DNA from: a virus
Lineage: Duplodnaviria; Caudoviricetes
Reading direction: 5' to 3' (one strand)
Length of the DNA: 64,000 nucleotides
Virus record (IMG/VR): IMGVR_UViG_3300021426_000070
Location: 32,001-96,000 of that record
Shown here: positions 7,195 to 56,849 of the stretch, piece by piece
Numbering within the stretch: the stretch's first letter is position 1
How the letters are laid out: every line of letters starts with the position of its first letter
Translations under genes and position numbers: made by a program
The notes under the pieces: generated by a model
What the model saw: only the letters and a program-made list of their open reading frames with translations
The model's database searches: none
Told to the model about the DNA's origin: nothing

Positions 7195-7469
7195 GTGTCA
7201 ATCTTTCAAAGAACGCTTTTTCTTCTTCTTACCTACGACCTCTGTCCGATACCCCTTTATGTGCCCGTCTCTGTCGTACACGGGGTGCTCGATGAACTCG
7301 TTGTAACTATCAATACCATTCGCATCAACCATACTAGGCTCATGAAACGCATCTGCCGTTTCTACCATCGGGTCGTTGTCGCTCAAGTGCATATCGTCAT
7401 CGTGCCATGATGGAGGCAGCAATGTTTTATTGATACGCTTGTTTGTCGTTTGGGTAAATGTATCTCGTC

Positions 7470-7898
7470 TCATAGCCCATTCTTGAGTCTTTTTAATTCT
7501 TTCTCTAACTCAGCAATCTTTGCCTTTCTCTTATCAGCCTCTTCTATCTCGTCTTCTAAGATACTCACCTCTTCGTTTGCCATACGCCAGAAACGCCCAA
7601 GCATCTCACCGTACGTCTCATCTTCATCTTTCTCAGCATAAAAGCCGTTATCCTCATAGCCGTGCCATTTCTGCACCAACCGAGTGTAACCTTGCTTCTT
7701 CAACTCACCAAGGAACTTAACCATCCTATCAATGTCACCAAAGAACTGTTCTTCGTCAATTTCTTTGCTGTGTACGGTCTTCTCTCTTACGAACGCAAAT
7801 GGGTTTCTCTTCTCTAAACGCTCAATAGCCATTTCAGCTAGCTCTTGCTCACTGCTGAAATAATCCTCTAAGAGCTTTTTTCTTATCTTCTTATCCAT
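7470..7898 (-). CDS. hypothetical protein
   Basis: Intact ORF. Confidence 0.6.
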   Translation of the reverse strand: MDKKIRKKLLEDYFSSEQELAEMAIERLEKRNPFAFVREKTVHSKEIDEEQFFGDIDRMVKFLGELKKQGYTRLVQKWHGYEDNGFYAEKDEDETYGEMLGRFWRMANEEVSILEDEIEEADKRKAKIAELEKELKRLKNGL

Positions 7899-10359: not shown

Positions 10360-10689
10360 TTAACCATTTATACTACCCTTTGCAGCCGCTGCAGCTCTAT
10401 CTTCATTAGTTGCTCTCATGGCGTTTGTCATCAGAGTAGTAGCTAAAGTACCTTCTTGTGTTCTTGCACCACCAATAGTAAGGAAAGGTCTTGAACCTGC
10501 TATTTCTCTTGATGAAGTCCATCGTGAAGCTATCTCTCTAACTTGCTGTGCTCGTCTTATGTTACCAACAGCATTTGCTTGTCGGGCAAGGCGGCTTGCT
10601 GTCCTATTGATGTTCTCAGCAGTACGGAACGTGGTTCGCTTTAAACCATCACCACCGTAACTAATACGACCATTTCTATTTGTTCTGAC
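10360..10689 (-). CDS. GTC-start Arg-rich protein A (109 aa, VRTNRNG...KGSING)
   Basis: Open frame begins at GTC directly after an in-frame TGA; promoter at 10722; shares RTAENI..TA.RL with protein B; absent from the ORF track. Confidence 0.75.
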   Translation of the reverse strand, partial: VRTNRNGRISYGGDGLKRTTFRTAENINRTASRLARQANAVGNIRRAQQVREIASRWTSSREIAGSRPFLTIGGARTQEGTLATTLMTNAMRATNEDRAAAAAKGSING

Positions 10690-10721
10690 TCAGCTAAATA
10701 TTTTGATTATTAATACTCTGC

Positions 10722-13990: not shown

Positions 13991-14556
13991 TGCCCGCCCT
14001 CTTCTTTCTCTAACTCGTTCTCTCTCTCAAGCCATGCAGATATGCTTACGCCATTCTTGACCTTTATCTGCACGTCACTATCCTCTATGCCCCTTTGGAT
14101 ATTCCTAAACTGAGGGTCATGGTGGTAAAGGAAGTTAGCAAGTGCTTGCATGTTTGGTGCTGTCTCTTGCTCTGACTCGGTGATATCCTCTATGCGGTTA
14201 TTCTTGTCAGCAACGCCATTGACAACATTGTACCTCATACGTACAACCTTGCCTTTCACCTTAATGCCTCCGAGGGCTGCTTTGAGGTATCTACCCCTTA
14301 CAATTCCTAGTACTCGAGAACGTCCGTGTGCTAACTCTTCGGAGATACGAGCACCCCTTTTTGCGTTCTCTTCATCATTCCATCCTTTGTATTTACCCGC
14401 TTTCATTTCTGAAAATGTAGTGGGCGTTAATCCCGCAACCCCTAGACTATCACCTAGAGCATATGCAATTTCCCCATCTTGGAGACCTTGCATAGCGAGG
14501 GCATATATCTCTTTGTAGAAGTCCTCGCTATCATAGTCGAACTTTGGTTTTGCCAT
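13987..14556 (-). CDS. terS: terminase small subunit
   Basis: HTH-like N-terminus (QDGEIAYAL); APNMQAL..FL motif; lies upstream of terL. Confidence 0.7.
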   Translation of the reverse strand: MAKPKFDYDSEDFYKEIYALAMQGLQDGEIAYALGDSLGVAGLTPTTFSEMKAGKYKGWNDEENAKRGARISEELAHGRSRVLGIVRGRYLKAALGGIKVKGKVVRMRYNVVNGVADKNNRIEDITESEQETAPNMQALANFLYHHDPQFRNIQRGIEDSDVQIKVKNGVSISAWLERENELEKEEGGQ

Positions 14557-14702: not shown

Positions 14703-15044
14703 TTATCCCGAGATAGCTGCTTTTGCAGCGGTATTGGGTGTGTACGTCTGTGATTGTCGTGCAGCCACCTCATAGTTTACGGTGTTTCCTATTACCTTGG
14801 TGAGTACTGCACCACTATCATTAGTAAGGGCTTCATTGGGTCTAATGCTGTCTGCCCTACCTACTGCCCTTAGATAGTTAGCCTCTATGGTTCTGATACG
14901 CTGCTGCCTTTGTCTGTTGCCTCTTGCAGCCGCTACTAACCGCCTTGCAGTCTCCCTTATATTCTCAGCAGTTCTATACGTGCTGTTGTTGCCATCAAGT
15001 GGGCTTGTGCTATTGTAAAATGATGGATTCTTTAATCTTTTGAC
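14703..15044 (-). CDS. GTC-start Arg-rich protein B (113 aa, VKRLKNP...AAISG)
   Basis: No Met anywhere; in-frame TAG 5 codons upstream of GTC; AGGAGG 8 nt upstream. Confidence 0.78.
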   Translation of the reverse strand, partial: VKRLKNPSFYNSTSPLDGNNSTYRTAENIRETARRLVAAARGNRQRQQRIRTIEANYLRAVGRADSIRPNEALTNDSGAVLTKVIGNTVNYEVAARQSQTYTPNTAAKAAISG

Positions 15045-15060
15045 TCTGCTTCCCTCCTAT

Positions 15061-15309
15061 TTATCCGTTACTACTACCTTTTGCAGCTAGTGGTGCGTAC
15101 TTGTCACCGATACGAGCACCATAAGATACCTTGATGTTTGCCCTACGAGACCAATCCACGCTCTGCAAGCGGTCGTTGATATTGTTTCTATACTCTTGTG
15201 CGATACGTGAGATACTTGCTAGACGTGTGCCCCTAGCTGTATTCGACATACGGGCTGCTTGCTCGTTGATATCGCCTATAGACTTTGCCATTGGTTCTCT
15301 CCGTCTGAC
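15061..15309 (-). CDS. GTC-start Arg-rich protein C (82 aa, VRRREPMAKS...KGSSNG)
   Basis: AGGAGG 7 nt before the in-frame GTC AGA; alternative ATG at 15291. Confidence 0.7.
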   Translation of the reverse strand, partial: VRRREPMAKSIGDINEQAARMSNTARGTRLASISRIAQEYRNNINDRLQSVDWSRRANIKVSYGARIGDKYAPLAAKGSSNG

Positions 15310-15320
15310 TCTGTACCCTC

Positions 15321-15521
15321 CTATCCGTTTGAATTTGATAAGGCATTGAGCATATTCGCTCTTGCTCTGCCTATTCTGTTATAGTTATCTTGCCCATACT
15401 GCCTTAGTAATGCATTCGCACGGCGATTAATGGCTCGTCCTACCATGGCTCTTCTTGCATATTGCCCCAAACCTCTTACATCACTAGTACGATATTCCAA
15501 TGTTCTCTTACTTGCTCTGAC
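15321..15521 (-). CDS. GTC-start Arg-rich protein D (66 aa, VRASKR...SNSNG)
   Basis: AGGAGG-AAGC-TGA-GTC-AGA: in-frame TGA immediately before GTC. Confidence 0.72.
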   Translation of the reverse strand, partial: VRASKRTLEYRTSDVRGLGQYARRAMVGRAINRRANALLRQYGQDNYNRIGRARANMLNALSNSNG

Positions 15522-15532
15522 TCAGCTTCCTC

Positions 15533-15664
15533 CTATCTGTTAGATAATCCCATTTGACATACTCTAATTAAAGATTGTTGGATGATAACGCAACTGTCCG
15601 TTAGCGAAATGCTTCTTGGTCTTACCATTGCTCTCCAATTCGACAATGCCCTACCGAAATACAT
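15533..15664 (-). pseudogene. degenerate family member (43 aa, ends MGLSNR)
   Basis: C-terminus resembles the MGLSNG motif but lacks the terminal Gly. Confidence 0.35.
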
Positions 15665-15666
15665 TT

Positions 15667-15924
15667 TTAACCATTACTCAATCCCATATACGAGCTACGT
15701 GCAAACTGCAGTCTGTTGGCTCTGCCCATATTGCGCATATACTCATCTGTGTTGTCCTCAGCCGACACGTTGCCACGAGCCGCCTTATAGCTTGATTTGT
15801 TACGTATGTTGCTTACGTACCTCATAGCTGCTTGGAAAGCTCTATCCAAACGTTCCCCGTCTGTCCTAGCCGCTATGCGGTTGTACTGACGTGTTATATC
15901 ACTTACTGACTTTGTTCTTCTGAC
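15667..15924 (-). CDS. GTC-start Arg-rich protein F (85 aa, VRRTKSVSDI...YMGLSNG)
   Basis: TAG-TGT-CGG-GTC-AGA; conserved KS..DI..Q N-terminus lies upstream of the TTG used by the ORF track. Confidence 0.75.
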   Translation of the reverse strand, partial: VRRTKSVSDITRQYNRIAARTDGERLDRAFQAAMRYVSNIRNKSSYKAARGNVSAEDNTDEYMRNMGRANRLQFARSSYMGLSNG

Positions 15925-15930
15925 CCGACA

Positions 15931-16176
15931 CTAACCATTACTCATACCCATATAGGTACTACGTGAATACTTTCTGTTGTCTATCTCATTAATATTACCA
16001 TTGCCACGAAGTGCATTTCTGTATGCGCTCGAATAGCTTGGTGTGTTCTGAATGTTATTCAGATACCTAAGAAACGTTCTTCCTATGCGGTCTTGTCTCT
16101 GAGGATTACCCTCTGAGCGTTCCCACAAAGCTTGCGCTTGGTCAAGTATATCATTCTTACTCTTATTTCTTCTGAC
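15931..16176 (-). CDS. GTC-start Arg-rich protein G (81 aa, VRRNKSKNDI...YMGMSNG)
   Basis: TAA-AGC-CGA-GTC-AGA; paralogous to F and H. Confidence 0.75.
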   Translation of the reverse strand, partial: VRRNKSKNDILDQAQALWERSEGNPQRQDRIGRTFLRYLNNIQNTPSYSSAYRNALRGNGNINEIDNRKYSRSTYMGMSNG

Positions 16177-16182
16177 TCGGCT

Positions 16183-16395
16183 TTATCCGTTTGTAAGACC
16201 CATATAGGTAGAGCGTGAATACTTTCTGTTGTAAGCACCCTCACCGCCTTTTCGAAAGCTGCGTTGGCGCATAATCCTATCGGTGTATCTGTCAGCCGCT
16301 ATGTTAGCCGCTGCCACCCTAGAAGCCGTTGCTCGTGGATTGTTCTCTATCCTATCGGCTTGCTCTAAGATTTCTCCAAAACTCTTCCCTCTGAC
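16183..16395 (-). CDS. GTC-start Arg-rich protein H (70 aa, VRGKSFGEI...YMGLTNG)
   Basis: No ATG/GTG/TTG between the upstream in-frame TGA and GTC; shares NRKYSRSTYMG with G. Confidence 0.75.
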   Translation of the reverse strand, partial: VRGKSFGEILEQADRIENNPRATASRVAAANIAADRYTDRIMRQRSFRKGGEGAYNRKYSRSTYMGLTNG

Positions 16396-16484
16396 TCTTC
16401 TGTTACTTTTAATTGTTATTATACATCAAATGCTACGGCAGACACTCTAACGAGGGAAAGCCATAGCATATATTCCGTGTCGGG

Positions 16485-17015
16485 TTATCCCGCTGACAAG
16501 CCCATTGAATACGTGCCGTCTGCGTTCTGTCTGATGACATTGCCACCGCTACCCTCAAGACGACCTTCAACAACACGTGCCATGCCGTTATCAAGCCATG
16601 CTTGGATTACCCTAGGCGAAATGTTGTTCATACCCGTGCGAACATCATAGTCACGCTGACGGCGGTTAGAAAGCGACTTACGACCACTCTGTGACACAAG
16701 ATTTCCATCCATATCACGATTGGTAAACGTCCATGTGCTACCGCCAGCCCTACGACCATCTGCAGACATCTTACCAGACCTTGTGCGGGTGATGGTCTGA
16801 ATCTGCTGACCGCTGTTCCACGCTTGCTGCTGACCTTGCAACTCTGAAAGCTGATAGCCTCGAGAATTAACCAAAGGCTGTGCAGTACGTGCTCCACCAG
16901 TATAAGCGGAGTTTGCACCACGTCCATCAATACCCGCATTGATTCGGGCACGCTGCTGAGATACCGTATTGGTATTCGGATTGGTGCGATTTCGTTCTGT
17001 TCTTTTTCTTGGCAT
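16485..17015 (-). CDS. Arg-rich protein I, ATG start, ends MGLSAG
   Basis: Same C-terminal motif as the GTC-start family. Confidence 0.75.
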   Translation of the reverse strand: MPRKRTERNRTNPNTNTVSQQRARINAGIDGRGANSAYTGGARTAQPLVNSRGYQLSELQGQQQAWNSGQQIQTITRTRSGKMSADGRRAGGSTWTFTNRDMDGNLVSQSGRKSLSNRRQRDYDVRTGMNNISPRVIQAWLDNGMARVVEGRLEGSGGNVIRQNADGTYSMGLSAG

Positions 17016-17041: not shown

Positions 17042-17413
17042 TTATCCTACCGCATTACCCATCTTTGCAGAATTGGACGAATTAGCTGATGAGCCACGAT
17101 AGACTTCCCTTCCTAGCTCTGCATAGCGTTCACGATTGTAATCACGGATAAAGCGTCCGTGCGTTGCATTTGCTGCATTGGGGTTAGCTGCCGCACGTCT
17201 CTCTATCTCTCTCTGTATGTTGTCGATATAACGCTGACCGATGGCACTAAGCCGCTCTCTGTTCCTATACCACGTGTCCGTACCATAGGTGCTGCCCTCG
17301 ATACGGGCTAACTGAGCCCTTACAGACTCGATAGAGCGACCTCTTCGGGTGCTACGCCTAGTATTGGCGTTCACCCTCGCATTGCCTAAGTATGATAAAT
17401 TACCTTTTCTGAC
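17042..17413 (-). CDS. GTC-start Arg-rich protein J (123 aa, VRKGNLSY...MGNAVG)
   Basis: The promoter box at 17434-17443 lies inside the ORF-track N-terminal extension; the first motif after it is AAAGGA-TTGCAGA-GTC-AGA. Confidence 0.7.
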   Translation of the reverse strand, partial: VRKGNLSYLGNARVNANTRRSTRRGRSIESVRAQLARIEGSTYGTDTWYRNRERLSAIGQRYIDNIQREIERRAAANPNAANATHGRFIRDYNRERYAELGREVYRGSSANSSNSAKMGNAVG

Positions 17414-17433
17414 TCTGCAATCCTTTCTTTTGT

Positions 17434-34445: not shown

Positions 34446-34796
34446 TCATAATACAATCTTCTCACCTAACTTATACACAACTTGCGCCTTCAGATACTCT
34501 TCACCGTCTTCGACATACGACACGAGTTCGCCATTCTCGTCCTCGAAAAGCTCTATCCACGCCTCTTCAATCTTGCATGTGTACGTATCATGCCCACAAG
34601 CAAACTGAACGATATCATAGTGCCTAGGTTGGAGCTCACCGTTCACCTCTCGCACATACCCGTCTTCGTCCAAATCACAATACTTCTTTTGTGTGTTCGG
34701 GCGAATCTCTCTCTTGTACTCAGTTACAAGTTTCTGTCTGATAGCCTCTAGTGACTGAGGCTTTGTTGCTAACTTTAATATATCCATTTTAACCAC
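34446..34796 (-). CDS. ASCH/PUA-like protein
   Basis: K..EYKREIRP...Y...YD..QF..G pattern resembles ASCH. Confidence 0.5.
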   Translation of the reverse strand: MVKMDILKLATKPQSLEAIRQKLVTEYKREIRPNTQKKYCDLDEDGYVREVNGELQPRHYDIVQFACGHDTYTCKIEEAWIELFEDENGELVSYVEDGEEYLKAQVVYKLGEKIVL

Positions 34797-35457
34797 TTGT
34801 TAATCCTAACGTATTTCTGTTTACGCCACCTTTGGGCACTTCTTTGTTTCTTGCCTTAATCATAGCATCATAGCTCTTGTGGAGCTTTACCTTGTCACCA
34901 TCTACAATAGCCATACTATTATGCTTGCTGATAACCTCACCAAGTGATTTTGGCAATACCATAGCAAAGACATCGGGACGTTCGCTGCCATCCCATCCTT
35001 CAGGAGCGTATTCGTCATTGAACTTCACCCTACCCGTTGCCTTTGCGCCATACCTAGCATACATACTAGCTAGCTTGTCACCATAGCAGTCAAGCTTCTT
35101 GCCACCAAGAGCAACAGCATAAGGAATTAGCTTACCTAGGCTATTTGAACCCTTGACACTAGAGAATACCGACACCACATCACCATTACGTTTGATAGCT
35201 AACCCCGCTTTGCCGTCTGAGGTAAGATACAAACGCATACGCCCATACTCTTTTTCTGTGTGTAAGTCCACCTTCCATCCGTGGGCATTAGCAGCCTTAC
35301 CGCTTGCTATAGCAGCATGAAAAACCTTTGGCGACACTCTGTTAAGAGAAAGGTTGCTGTGCTTGATACCATTTCTCTCTAACTCAGAGTTTACACGGAG
35401 TGATACAGCCCTAGCGTAAATTTGTTCTCTTGTAAAACTACTCATCTTTCTTGTGAC
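34789..35457 (-). CDS. GTC-start protein K (VTRKMSSF...LGLTSG) with GNAT-like core
   Basis: GCCGA-GTC in frame 4 codons before the ATG at 35445; same C-terminal Gly motif; LDCYG...MYARYG is GNAT-like. Confidence 0.65.
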   Translation of the reverse strand, partial: VTRKMSSFTREQIYARAVSLRVNSELERNGIKHSNLSLNRVSPKVFHAAIASGKAANAHGWKVDLHTEKEYGRMRLYLTSDGKAGLAIKRNGDVVSVFSSVKGSNSLGKLIPYAVALGGKKLDCYGDKLASMYARYGAKATGRVKFNDEYAPEGWDGSERPDVFAMVLPKSLGEVISKHNSMAIVDGDKVKLHKSYDAMIKARNKEVPKGGVNRNTLGLTSG

Positions 35458-35462
35458 TCGGC

Positions 35463-37071: not shown

Positions 37072-37105
37072 TTGTTATTTTATCGTTTATTGAAATTTTT
37101 CAGAG

Positions 37106-37178
37106 TTGCGGCGGGGGAACTCGAATCCCCGACCTCCACCAAGTCAAAGTGGCAAGCTACCATCTGCTCCACGCCGCG
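37106..37178 (-). tRNA. initiator-type tRNA with valine anticodon GAC
   Basis: CGCGGCG-TG-GAGC-AGATGGTA-GCTT-G-CCACT-TTGACTT-GGTGG-AGGTC-GGGGA-TTCGAGT-TCCCC-CGCCGCA-A; C1:A72 mismatch, A11:U24, A73. Confidence 0.88.
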
Positions 37179-41345: not shown

Positions 41346-41781
41346 TTCTCTAACTCAAAATTTTGGTTGACTTCACTTACAGAAAAGACACGGTCTGCCA
41401 CCCCACTTGACTCCACTAACACGCCCCTTGCGTATGTGTCCTTTGACGTACAGACATTGACAAAACCTTTAATGCGATAGGAACGCTTCACTTCTTTTTT
41501 CGCACATAAGCCGTCAATATAGGACTCCACCGTTTCTATGCACGTCACATGGTCGCCAACCTTGAACTTACACTTGTCATTACCGCCGTAAAAACGCATT
41601 TTCGACAATGCTGTCGCTATATACTCCTGTGCCCTTATGATGTTCTCGTCATTGCCGCCTTTAAGGTCTGAGCATGCAAAGAAATTGGCAATGGGCACAC
41701 CCTCATCAATGTGCCTCATCACCTCATAGATAAACATCTTCAAGTGAGCTACCTCTGTTACTATCGTTATATCCTCAATCG

Positions 41782-48145: not shown

Positions 48146-48923
48146 CCCTAGACAAATTATTGTTGTTAAACGTTGTTGTTCTGTTATCGTAATTACCTTC
48201 TAATACCTTGGGGAAATTATTAGGCTTGAATAGCCAATCAAAATCGGCAGTCCACCCTCTGTTATTCTTTCCATTCAGAAAATCCGATGCCGCAGCTTTA
48301 CGGATAACCTCTTCTACCGATTGATAGCCATACTCACGCAATCTTGCTCTCATGCTCTGCTTACGTTTATCCGTAAGCCTTGATATGGGCTTGATAGCCT
48401 TGTTACTCATAACAGCATTATAGAGAGAAACGATATTATCCAACTCTGACTCCTTTTTGTTCGAAAGTGTACTTTCGACTTCAATAGATACGTTAGTATC
48501 TTGTTTTCTCTCTGTTATATATATATCTTGTTTCTCTATATTATCTCTTTTATTTAGTGTGGGGTTTTCTCCGTGTCGGGAAAAGTCCGTGTCGGTATTT
48601 TCCGTGCACGGTTTTTTCCGTGTCGGTATTTCTTTGTTTGCCTTCAGTGTATATACAACCGACCCAAACTGCCCCTTCTCATTAGTACCCTGCTGACCTT
48701 TGGTTATCCACCCACTCAAAGCAAGCTCATTAAGGTACTTTCTAAGTGTCTCCACACTATACCCCAACTCATTTGCCATCGGCTCAAGCAAGAAATCCCA
48801 ACCTTCGGGCTTACAAGCCATATAGACATACACAAACCTAGCTCTGTCTGATAGTGTCTTATCAAAGACAAGGCTTCTAGGAACACTTTCGTAATTCTTT
48901 AATTCGCTTTTAAAATTACCCAT
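48054..48923 (-). CDS. phage replication initiator (HTH N-terminus)
   Basis: N-terminal HTH; C-terminal FLNGKN.RGW.ADFDWL.KPNNF.KVLEGNY. Confidence 0.8.
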   Translation of the reverse strand: MGNFKSELKNYESVPRSLVFDKTLSDRARFVYVYMACKPEGWDFLLEPMANELGYSVETLRKYLNELALSGWITKGQQGTNEKGQFGSVVYTLKANKEIPTRKKPCTENTDTDFSRHGENPTLNKRDNIEKQDIYITERKQDTNVSIEVESTLSNKKESELDNIVSLYNAVMSNKAIKPISRLTDKRKQSMRARLREYGYQSVEEVIRKAAASDFLNGKNNRGWTADFDWLFKPNNFPKVLEGNYDNRTTTFNNNNLSRDEQRANDLLRRQEGAARVIANLAAEEERDY

Positions 48924-53214: not shown

Positions 53215-53292
53215 TGGGCTTTGTCGGGTTCGAACCAACGTCACTCTTGCGAGTTCACTAGTACAAGCTCTACCAAATTGAGCTAAAAGCCC
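53215..53292 (-). tRNA. tRNA-like element with aberrant anticodon arm
   Basis: Intact acceptor (GGGCTTT/AAAGCCC), D and T arms; no standard 5-bp/7-nt anticodon arm. Confidence 0.6.
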
Positions 53293-53528: not shown

Positions 53529-53617
53529 GGAGGGGAGACGGACTCGAACCGCCGACCATACAGCTATAGCGCAAAGCCTATAAGTTACTGCTGCTCTACC
53601 AACTGAGCTATCCCCCC
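53529..53617 (-). tRNA. tRNA-like element with elongated anticodon arm
   Basis: Canonical acceptor, D and T arms; about 15 extra nt in the anticodon arm (TATAG-GCTTTGCG-CTATA). Confidence 0.65.
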
Positions 53618-56124: not shown

Positions 56125-56849
56125 GACACCTTATTCTTGTAGCTCATAATAACGTCAATGAACTTCTGTAACTTTTGGTAGTCTGCGTACTCGTCCCATA
56201 CCCTCTTCACATCTTCTTGTGTTCGGGCTTGTTCGAGTGCGGGGATAATGTACCCGTTGAGCACATCGTTAAAATCACGCTCTTCGTCAGACATAGAGCT
56301 AGGCTCTTTCTGTGGCTCTTCGTTCAGCTTGTAACGGGTATTACCAACCCTATCAACAATGACAAGCTTATTGATATTTCGGGCTTCATCATAGCCAATT
56401 TCTTTCACGATGAAAATCGTCTTAGCAGATACCTTGACCTTACCATTATCATCTTTCCACTCGTCTTTATTGAGGTTGATAAAAATCTTCGGTGAAGTAT
56501 AGAGCTCACGACCAATACCCCAATTGAAACAAGCTCGCTTGAACGAGTCAGAGAAAGAGCCCTTGACAGCCTCCGTGTTACTCTCTACGCCAACGTCTTG
56601 CTTTCCTATCCACTCACCCGTTGCTTGGTCTTTGATGGATACGGTACAACACATCTGACCATTGATAACATCGTGCTTGCGCTGCCAACCGAACATGCCG
56701 AAAAGCTCATCGAGTATTCGTTGGTCGCAACGTGCATCCTTATACAAAAGGAGAGAGCACCATGCACCGTTTTGTGTCTTGCCGCACTGACCAACTCGAC
56801 ATTCAATCTCGTCAGCCCTCAGCACTCGAATTTCTTTTGTTTCTGCCAT
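56121..56849 (-). CDS. Rad52/Sak-like single-strand annealing protein
   Basis: LLYKDAR....LDE..G..GWQ...KQDVG.ES.....KG..SD.FKRA...WGIGRELY. Confidence 0.88.
   Translation of the reverse strand: MAETKEIRVLRADEIECRVGQCGKTQNGAWCSLLLYKDARCDQRILDELFGMFGWQRKHDVINGQMCCTVSIKDQATGEWIGKQDVGVESNTEAVKGSFSDSFKRACFNWGIGRELYTSPKIFINLNKDEWKDDNGKVKVSAKTIFIVKEIGYDEARNINKLVIVDRVGNTRYKLNEEPQKEPSSMSDEERDFNDVLNGYIIPALEQARTQEDVKRVWDEYADYQKLQKFIDVIMSYKNKVS

Follow-up and report, generated by a model that had tools for sequence, protein, structure and literature searches.

How much of its anticodon loop can a phage tRNA use in choosing where translation begins? The question is raised by a tRNA gene with a GAC anticodon on the minus strand of the window, the 64,000-nucleotide stretch of DNA analysed here, which lies in a phage contig of 129,359 bp whose 693-bp terminal overlap indicates that the genome is probably complete. 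A sequence-only reading of this locus had pointed out that positions 31–38 of the tRNA are UUUGACUU, with an unusual U37 and a weak U31:G39 pair, and that all eight bases can pair with a start-site motif, GAGUCAGA, with a possible extension into G39-G40-U41; it proposed that such extended pairing could provide start-site specificity. The loop bases and the weak pair are as described when the minus strand is read, and the arithmetic of the eight pairs is right. The proposal itself divides in two: the 5’ side of the codon behaves as the pairing predicts (A-1 with U37 and probably G-2 with U38), and the 3’ side and the stem do not.

An initiator-type tRNA with a valine anticodon

ARAGORN calls the 74-nt gene as tRNA-Val(GAC) (Table 1). 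The acceptor stem carries a C1xA72 mismatch followed by G2:C71 and C3:G70, with A73 as discriminator, and the D stem contains A11:U24; the anticodon stem is C27:G43, C28:G42, A29:U41, C30:G40 and U31-G39, closing a loop of U32-U33-G34-A35-C36-U37-U38. In an alignment of 11 distinct homologues position 1 is unpaired with 72 in all 11, the formylation determinants at 2:71 and 3:70 are GC and CG in 10, and 11:24 is A:U in all 11. Two further initiator features are missing. The three consecutive G:C pairs at 29–31:39–41 are replaced here by A29:U41, C30:G40 and U31-G39 (in relatives 30:40 is G:C in some, and 31:39 is either U31-G39 or U31:A39), and in place of a CAU anticodon with A37 there is GAC with U37. 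An elongator tRNA-Val(GAC) would be expected to have a paired 1:72 and a purine at 37, whereas this tRNA has C1xA72 and a U37 that is conserved in all homologues. As far as sequence can tell, the valyl-tRNA synthetase (ValRS) identity set of A35, C36 and A73 is complete. Judged by these elements, the body of the tRNA is of the bacterial initiator type and its anticodon is of the valine type.

The same alignment contains 10 stem pairs with changes on both sides, and 91% of its cells are paired, compared with 39–49% in slid controls. Pattern scans recover homologues in more than 100 IMG/VR contigs, and although their stems differ by compensatory changes, U31, U33, the GAC anticodon, U37 and U38 never vary; position 32 is C in one variant. 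It had also been suggested that the RNA could act as a guide or antisense adaptor, and nothing favours this for what is a covariation-supported cloverleaf. The Rfam tRNA model does not report the GAC tRNA on a 301-nt slice, even with E values up to 10, and we therefore rely on ARAGORN and covariation for its identification. The 5’ half of the tRNA does match the 3’ end of a Staphylococcus sRNA model in Rfam, the matched part of which looks like the beginning of an initiator-type tRNA gene. Elsewhere in the window, a six-tRNA cluster includes an ARAGORN-called tRNA with a four-base anticodon (atag) at 53529–53617 (minus strand), and Rfam adds a tRNA (43 bits) at 53215–53292 (minus strand) that ARAGORN does not call.

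Table 1. The GAC tRNA, the GUC-start genes and the ATG-started paralogue, in window coordinates
Feature	Position	Strand	Start context	Start codon	Codons	Remarks
Initiator-type tRNA, anticodon GAC	37105..37178	-				74 nt; ARAGORN tRNA-Val(GAC)
tRNA positions 30–40	37149..37139	-				C30 U31 U32 U33 G34 A35 C36 U37 U38 G39 G40
tRNA U33/U32/U31	37146–37148	-				
tRNA G34-A35-C36	37145–37143	-				Anticodon
tRNA U37	37142	-				
tRNA U38	37141	-				
Gene A	10360..10691	-	GCTGA-GTC-AGA	GTC 10687–10689	109	First canonical start at codon 86
Gene H	14703..15046	-	GCAGA-GTC-AAA	GTC 15044	113	First canonical start at codon 92; AGGAGG-like box upstream
Gene G	15061..15311	-	ACAGA-GTC-AGA	GTC 15309	82	AGGAGG-like box upstream
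Gene F	15321..15523	-	GCTGA-GTC-AGA	GTC 15521	66	AGGAGG box upstream
Gene E	15667..15926	-	GTCGG-GTC-AGA	GTC 15924	85	
Gene D	15931..16178	-	GCCGA-GTC-AGA	GTC 16176	81	
Gene C	16183..16397	-	GAAGA-GTC-AGA	GTC 16395	70	
ATG-started paralogue, basic-protein family	16485..17015	-	GAACT-ATG			U at -1; internal control
Gene B	17042..17415	-	GCAGA-GTC-AGA	GTC 17413	123	
Gene K	34789..35459	-	GCCGA-GTC-ACA	GTC 35457	222	1.65 kb downstream of the tRNA

Genes with a probable GUC start

Nine minus-strand frames in the window, of 66–222 codons, open at an in-frame GTC that lies inside a GA-GTC-ARA motif or a one-base variant of it (Table 1). Genes A–H form a family of small Arg-rich proteins with a C-terminal tail resembling Gly-x-Ser/Asn-x-Gly, and their genes are grouped around the large terminase gene, within the late packaging region. 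Gene A has an in-frame TGA immediately upstream of its start, and gene B is the first gene downstream of a TAnnTTTG-type promoter box. Neither A nor H has an ATG, GTG or TTG for 86 and 92 codons respectively, and yet the two are homologous over residues 19–57, which requires translation to start ahead of any canonical codon. Gene K has an orthologue in a related genome (G001), a frame of 222 codons that also opens at GTC and is adjacent to the tRNA; the two products share 41% identity (E 1e-54), and their alignment begins 40 codons ahead of the first canonical start of the G001 frame. In every genome that carries the tRNA, frames of the same protein family that open at GTC lie downstream of it, usually at a distance of 0.45–1.4 kb. 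We regard initiation at GUC by the phage GAC tRNA as highly probable, and it is the working frame for what follows.

Start sites were called by open-frame rules and not by a trained gene finder, because searches with the gene H protein gave no usable matches (none in five related records, and marginal ones only by local tblastn). A search for relatives of the 222-aa K protein returned only domain matches within very large proteins, which are uninformative about the start codon; Pfam and PHROGs assign no function to the GUC-start proteins, and megablast against deposited phages gave no match.

AGGAGG-like boxes lie 8–10 nt before many of the GUC starts, right after the preceding stop codon (14990–15540, minus strand, and related loci). 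Promoter boxes in the phage are of the Bacteroidetes TAnnTTTG type, and a Shine-Dalgarno box is missing before most of its ATG genes; in so Shine-Dalgarno-poor a genome, a count of the codons that follow such boxes is noisy. Cleavage to leaderless mRNAs was considered and is unlikely, because an AGGAGG-like box stands at the usual distance from many of the starts.

The octamer motif and chance

The octamer GAGTCAGA occurs 10 times in the window, as compared with 1.6 copies expected from shuffles, and 0 of 100 shuffles reach 10. Six of the ten are the exact 5’ end of 66–123-codon frames that have no earlier canonical start, and one-base variants stand at three more starts (GGGTCAGA at 15919–15926, GAGTCAAA at 15039–15046 and GAGTCACA at 35452–35459). 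The other four exact copies are away from gene starts, three on the minus strand (1963–1970, 14171–14178 and 48445–48452) and one on the plus strand (56545–56552), from which it follows that the motif alone is insufficient: either the octamer by itself does not mark a start, or the off-start copies give very short peptides. At the off-start copies on the minus strand the GTC frame is open for just 4–13 codons.

Eight of the nine start sites in the window are compatible with U over all eight bases, although this is a count in which any purine scores as a pair, because all five of the flanking tRNA bases are U. The ATG starts of the same genome are also purine-rich (61% at -2, 89% at +4, 57% at +5 and 70% at +6), and what is specific to the GUC starts is only the -1 position, A and not U, and the -2 position, G and not A. 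The nominal energies, in which the ribosome is ignored, are -6.9 kcal/mol for the 8-nt duplex, -3.4 for GAGUC/GACUU and -0.5 for the codon triplet.

A DNA-level palindrome or methylation site (GANTC, CTGAGTCAG) was rejected as an explanation of the motif, which keeps a fixed frame at the 5’ ends of open reading frames on one strand; the GANTC reading is also broken by the gene E site. On the sense strand, GAGTC is present at 0.51 and 0.58 of its Markov expectation in two relatives (G001 and G002; whole records, L028–L039), where GAGTT is enriched about 1.5-fold, and the depletion is weak in the window’s own genome (0.82). The depletion in the two relatives is consistent with an avoidance of internal GA+GUC signals.

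The 5’ flank follows U37 and U38

When the GTC-start proteins, drawn from more than 100 phage contigs, are clustered at 50–60% identity, at least 17 clusters result; many of the contigs are related, so that the counts are not fully independent. Position -2 is G in 100% of these clusters, and -1 is A in about 95%, in fact in all but one; the exception is gene E, the sole site with G at -1, where a G-U wobble with U37 would form. Elsewhere in the flank, U, A or C occurs at -3, C or U predominates at -4, and G predominates at -5. Positions -3 and -6 to -20 vary freely, and the sequence upstream of the flank is unrelated among clusters. Chance frames that pass the open-frame filter and lack the family tail have no flank, which provides an internal negative control.

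The contrast with ordinary starts in the same genome is clear. Of its 64 ATG starts, 64% have T and 20% have A at -1, and 14% have G at -2, with a similar picture in G001; eight of the nine GTC starts, by contrast, have A at -1 and not one has T, and every one of the nine carries G at -2 (Fisher p = 1e-4, 3e-4 and 5e-7). The U favoured at -1 of the ATG starts is the complement of A37 in an ordinary initiator tRNA, and at the GTC starts U37 is matched by A-1 at eight sites and by G-1 at one; the base at -1 is thus complementary to N37 at the sites read, as a quadruplet interaction predicts.

Covariation of N37 and N38 with the start context

Other phage contigs provide natural changes of both anticodon and loop. 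The anticodon and the start codon switch together, in the combinations GAC/GTC, AAC/GTT, ACU/AGT, CCU/AGG and UAU/ATA. On three contigs (L268, L194 and L203) AAC tRNAs with U37U38 are followed by GCTGA-GTT starts, three in all, and an ACU tRNA with U37U38 (L196) is followed by a GCTGA-AGT start, so the start codon tracks the anticodon and GA tracks UU.

A scan for other anticodons also found initiator-type tRNAs, with the 1x72 mismatch, that carry CCU (G006–G010, corresponding to L162 and L164–L167), and these differ at position 37. With A37 (G007), T is at -1 in 11 of 16 Shine-Dalgarno-led AGG starts; with U37 (G008 and G010), -1 is A in 7/9 and 6/8 AGG starts and is never T, and the A37 versus U37 contrast has p = 0.001. 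There is a counter-case, G006, which has A37 and yet A at -1 in three of four candidate AGG starts. The U37U38 member of this family (G009) has three AGG starts with flanks GCGGA, TCGGA and GCUGA, all with GA at -2/-1 and with C at -4, as in the flank of the GAC family. A UAU tRNA with U37 and A38 (L236) has TGA before an ATA start, and for a CGU initiator-type tRNA (L161) no convincing matching start was found.

The largest comparison is between CAU initiator-type tRNAs with U37 or A37, for which 139 contigs were usable and ATG starts on the tRNA strand were counted. With A37 A38 the -1 base is A in 36% and U in 39%, and with A37 C38 it is A in 29% and U in 34%; with U37 A38 these values are 48% and 26%, and with U37 C38 they are 67% and 10%. 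The effect of N37 on -1 is strong whether computed per contig (p = 1.4e-12) or over 83 tRNA clusters (p = 7e-6), and it persists inside GC bins. In the same four groups -2 is G in 12%, 34%, 13% and 31% respectively, so C38 goes with G at -2 (33% versus 12%); this association is weaker, and GC content accounts for part of it (t = 2.6 once GC is controlled for). The A38 tRNAs, in both the CCU and CAU sets, show no U enrichment at -2, which indicates that -2:38 pairing is not general. The sequence-only reading had called for covariation between the tRNA loop and the start flanks, and this is found for N37 with -1 in three comparisons (the CCU family, the CAU family and GTC versus ATG starts), and for positions 39–40 it is absent.

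Initiator-type tRNA(CAU) genes with U37 are common in phage contigs (L181–L285), with loops such as CUCAUUC, UUCAUUC and CUCAUUA. These CAU/U37 tRNAs mostly keep the GGG/CCC stem, whereas in the non-CAU tRNAs that carry U37U38 the three G:C pairs are missing and U31-G39 is frequent.

The 3’ side and the stem

A pairing of AGA at +4 to +6 with U33–U31 had been part of the original proposal, and it is unsupported, as the second codon varies while the 5’ flank is fixed. In the window the second codon is AGA in seven of the nine GTC genes, AAA in one and ACA in one. In the orthologous gene located about 507 nt after the tRNA, however, it is GCA, GUA, GGU, GGA or AGA with an unchanged 5’ flank, and in the sister families it is CAG, CCC or GCU; wherever C stands at +4 or +5 in these codons, it breaks the pairing. 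The bias is generic, in that the ATG starts of the same genome show it too, with 89% purine at +4 and 58% A at +6, and an Arg/Lys-rich N-terminus combined with a normal start context would give the same match to U33–U31. Across the CAU initiator tRNAs the base at +5 has no overall dependence on whether N32 is C or U, so that this arm of the covariation check gives no general signal, and there is a weak trend within the U37C38 group for C32 to go with G at +5. U33 makes the U-turn of the anticodon loop, and +4 to +6 constitute the A-site codon, which must stay free.

The extension into G39-G40-U41 has a real counterpart in GCCGA, found only at the starts at 16176 and 35457, but it is not accompanied by covariation. 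Relatives with A39 and C40 (G001, G002 and L050) still have GCUGA, and since this flank is kept with C40 as with G40, the C at -4 is independent of position 40; with G39 tRNAs, -3 is A at about a third of sites. Pairing with positions 39–41 would in addition need a melted anticodon stem. The match to G39–U41 is chance, and the remainder of the 8-to-11-base match beyond the 5’ flank is probably coincidence.

Discussion

We have described here a phage tRNA in which an initiator-type body is combined with a valine-type anticodon, and a set of GUC starts whose immediate 5’ flank matches the two bases that follow that anticodon. From the observed conservation and covariation, we think it rather likely that the tRNA reads a start signal of four to five bases, in a start helix of 4–5 bp that would be a phage version of the quadruplet -1:37 interaction. 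In this model the phage initiator-type tRNA would start translation at GUC on a set of late genes, namely those for the small Arg-rich proteins by the terminase gene and for the 222-aa protein. From its identity elements we infer that host ValRS charges the tRNA through A35, C36 and A73, and that host formyltransferase and IF2 accept it via C1xA72, G2:C71, C3:G70 and A11:U24. On the ribosome, G34–U38, as the stacked 3’ side of the anticodon loop, would pair with mRNA bases G-2, A-1, G+1, U+2 and C+3, giving 4–5 bp in place of 3 bp, and the GAGUC/GACUU helix would be a natural geometric extension of the codon-anticodon pairing. Such added pairs may make up for the absence of the three G:C stem pairs, and they would tell true starts from internal GUC valine codons and set these sites off from those of the host initiator, for which A37 makes U the favoured base at -1.

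The loop and flank sequences suggest that G-2 probably pairs with U38, although simple pairing is not a full account of this position, because G-2 is invariant even though pairing with U38 would be no weaker for A. U38 normally takes part in a 32–38 non-Watson-Crick pair that shapes the loop. There is also conservation of G at -5 and of a pyrimidine at -4, neither of which is explained by any base of the tRNA. Taken with the lack of U enrichment at -2 where the tRNA has A38, these features make a second reader of the flank, either the ribosome or a factor, possible. More tentatively, phages may use N37/N38 as a private address, in which a five-base signal (GA+GUC read by GAC+UU) steers initiation to chosen, mostly late genes and away from host mRNAs, and does so across tRNAs with CAU, GAC, AAC, CCU and ACU anticodons. 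If so, the virus could program the choice of start on two levels, that of the codon and that of its context.

There are several alternative models to consider. One, which we think unlikely, is that something else reads the flank in place of the tRNA (16S rRNA, the ribosomal platform, an initiation factor or a phage protein, for instance), and that U37 and U38 are present for some other reason, candidates being the evasion of host anticodon-loop nucleases such as VapC, an enzyme that cleaves initiator tRNA, or a need to stay out of elongation. The conserved G-5 and Y-4 without a tRNA partner, the absence of A at -2 and the TGA that still precedes the ATA start in L236, whose tRNA has A38, all fit such a reader, and phage tRNAs often have anticodon-loop changes that are predicted to block host anticodon nucleases and have been proposed to evade them (van den Berg et al. 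2023, PMC10264068). However, this model gives no account of the switching of -1 with N37 in three anticodon families and within genomes, nor of the way in which G at -2 tracks U38 or C38 and not the anticodon, and nuclease evasion and pairing can in any case both hold.

A second model, quite improbable in our view, is that the flank has no function and was inherited by paralogues, with a U-rich loop meeting a purine-rich initiation region. The genes do belong to a single family of paralogues and orthologues, and about 7% of ordinary start contexts are estimated, from ATG-start frequencies, to be fully U-compatible. Against this, -2 and -1 are fixed while -3, -6 to -20 and the proteins themselves have much diverged, and the same flank is present at unrelated genes in G009 and L196 alongside other anticodons. 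A third model, which we consider very improbable, is that GUC is not the start, that the frames are expressed by read-through, re-initiation or internal canonical starts, and that the tRNA is an odd elongator tRNA-Val. The frame of genes D and E is indeed that of the preceding gene, with just one stop codon in between, and a TTG or ATG lies 6–26 codons downstream at several sites, but genes A and B head their units, the homology of A and H runs throughout frames that lack a canonical start for 86 and 92 codons, and the 1x72 mismatch is present in all tRNA variants, with anticodon and start codon changing together. Least credible is the proposal that positions 31–38 pair as a whole with the 8-nt motif, optionally with G39–U41, in an 8–11 bp helix that defines the start, for although the eight fully U-compatible sites, the nominal duplex energy of -6.9 versus -0.5 kcal/mol for the codon alone and the weak C32/G+5 trend are in its favour, it conflicts with the C at +4 or +5 in relatives with a constant 5’ flank, the generic second-codon bias of ATG starts, the lack of overall dependence on N32 and of -4 on position 40, and the structural demands of the U-turn, a free A-site codon and an unmelted stem.

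The four- to five-base reading that we favour has close precedents among known systems. In the quadruplet (Ganoza) model the base 3’ of the anticodon complements the base 5’ of the start codon, and a change of N37 shifts the preferred -1 base, with G-U wobble tolerated. With compensatory A37 mutants of E. coli tRNAfMet the -1 preference shifts accordingly, A37U favouring A and, less so, G (Hollerer and Jeschek 2023, PMC10018350), which is exactly the natural arrangement in the phage, and earlier support for -1:37 pairing came from chloroplasts (Esposito et al. 2003, PMC140755). The phage case differs in being natural, in involving a non-AUG codon and a tRNA without the three G:C stem pairs, in being probably one base longer (G-2:U38), and in that -1 and -2 are near-invariant and do not show just a mild preference. 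An engineered E. coli tRNAfMet with G34C36, and hence a GAC anticodon, initiates at GUC with formyl-valine (Wu and RajBhandary 1997, as cited in PMC2268962). It resembles the phage tRNA in having an initiator acceptor and D stem with a GAC anticodon that reads GUC as a start, and its efficiency in re-initiation fits the tandem gene array of the phage; unlike the phage tRNA, with its U37, U38, A29:U41, C30:G40 and U31-G39, it retains A37, A38 and the three G:C pairs.

Canonical tRNAfMet, including the copies carried by phages, shares with the GAC tRNA the C1xA72 mismatch, G2:C71, C3:G70, A11:U24, A73 and the overall 5’ half, and is distinguished by CAU in place of GAC, AA in place of UU at 37–38, and three consecutive G:C pairs. 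Phage tRNAs proposed to evade nucleases are similar in having unusual loop nucleotides beside the anticodon, but the evasion model makes no prediction about mRNA, whereas the -1 and -2 bases of the mRNA here go with those of the loop. We found no published account of private start codons, or of private -1/-2 contexts, for initiator tRNAs that phages carry naturally.

If the 5’ pairing is real, the choice of start site in bacteria is not fixed by the host, as a single viral tRNA gene would redefine both the codon and its immediate context. This would be a natural orthogonal initiation channel, the hand-built counterparts of which include the GAC, AAC and CUA initiator tRNAs and the A37 mutants. 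It would also account for the truncation or omission of these genes by gene finders, and would supply a simple rule for annotation, in which N37 and N38 are read off the phage's initiator tRNA. The natural compensatory pairs make it testable whether an initiator tRNA reads more than three bases.

We also note minus-strand frames in the window that have the same flank before GTT, at 7198–7511 and also at 41354 and 14014. The frame that opens at 7509 has the context GCTGA-GTT-AGA and is 103 codons long, with its first canonical start at codon 12. Their sequences suggest that these could be GUU starts read by the GAC tRNA through a G34-U wobble.
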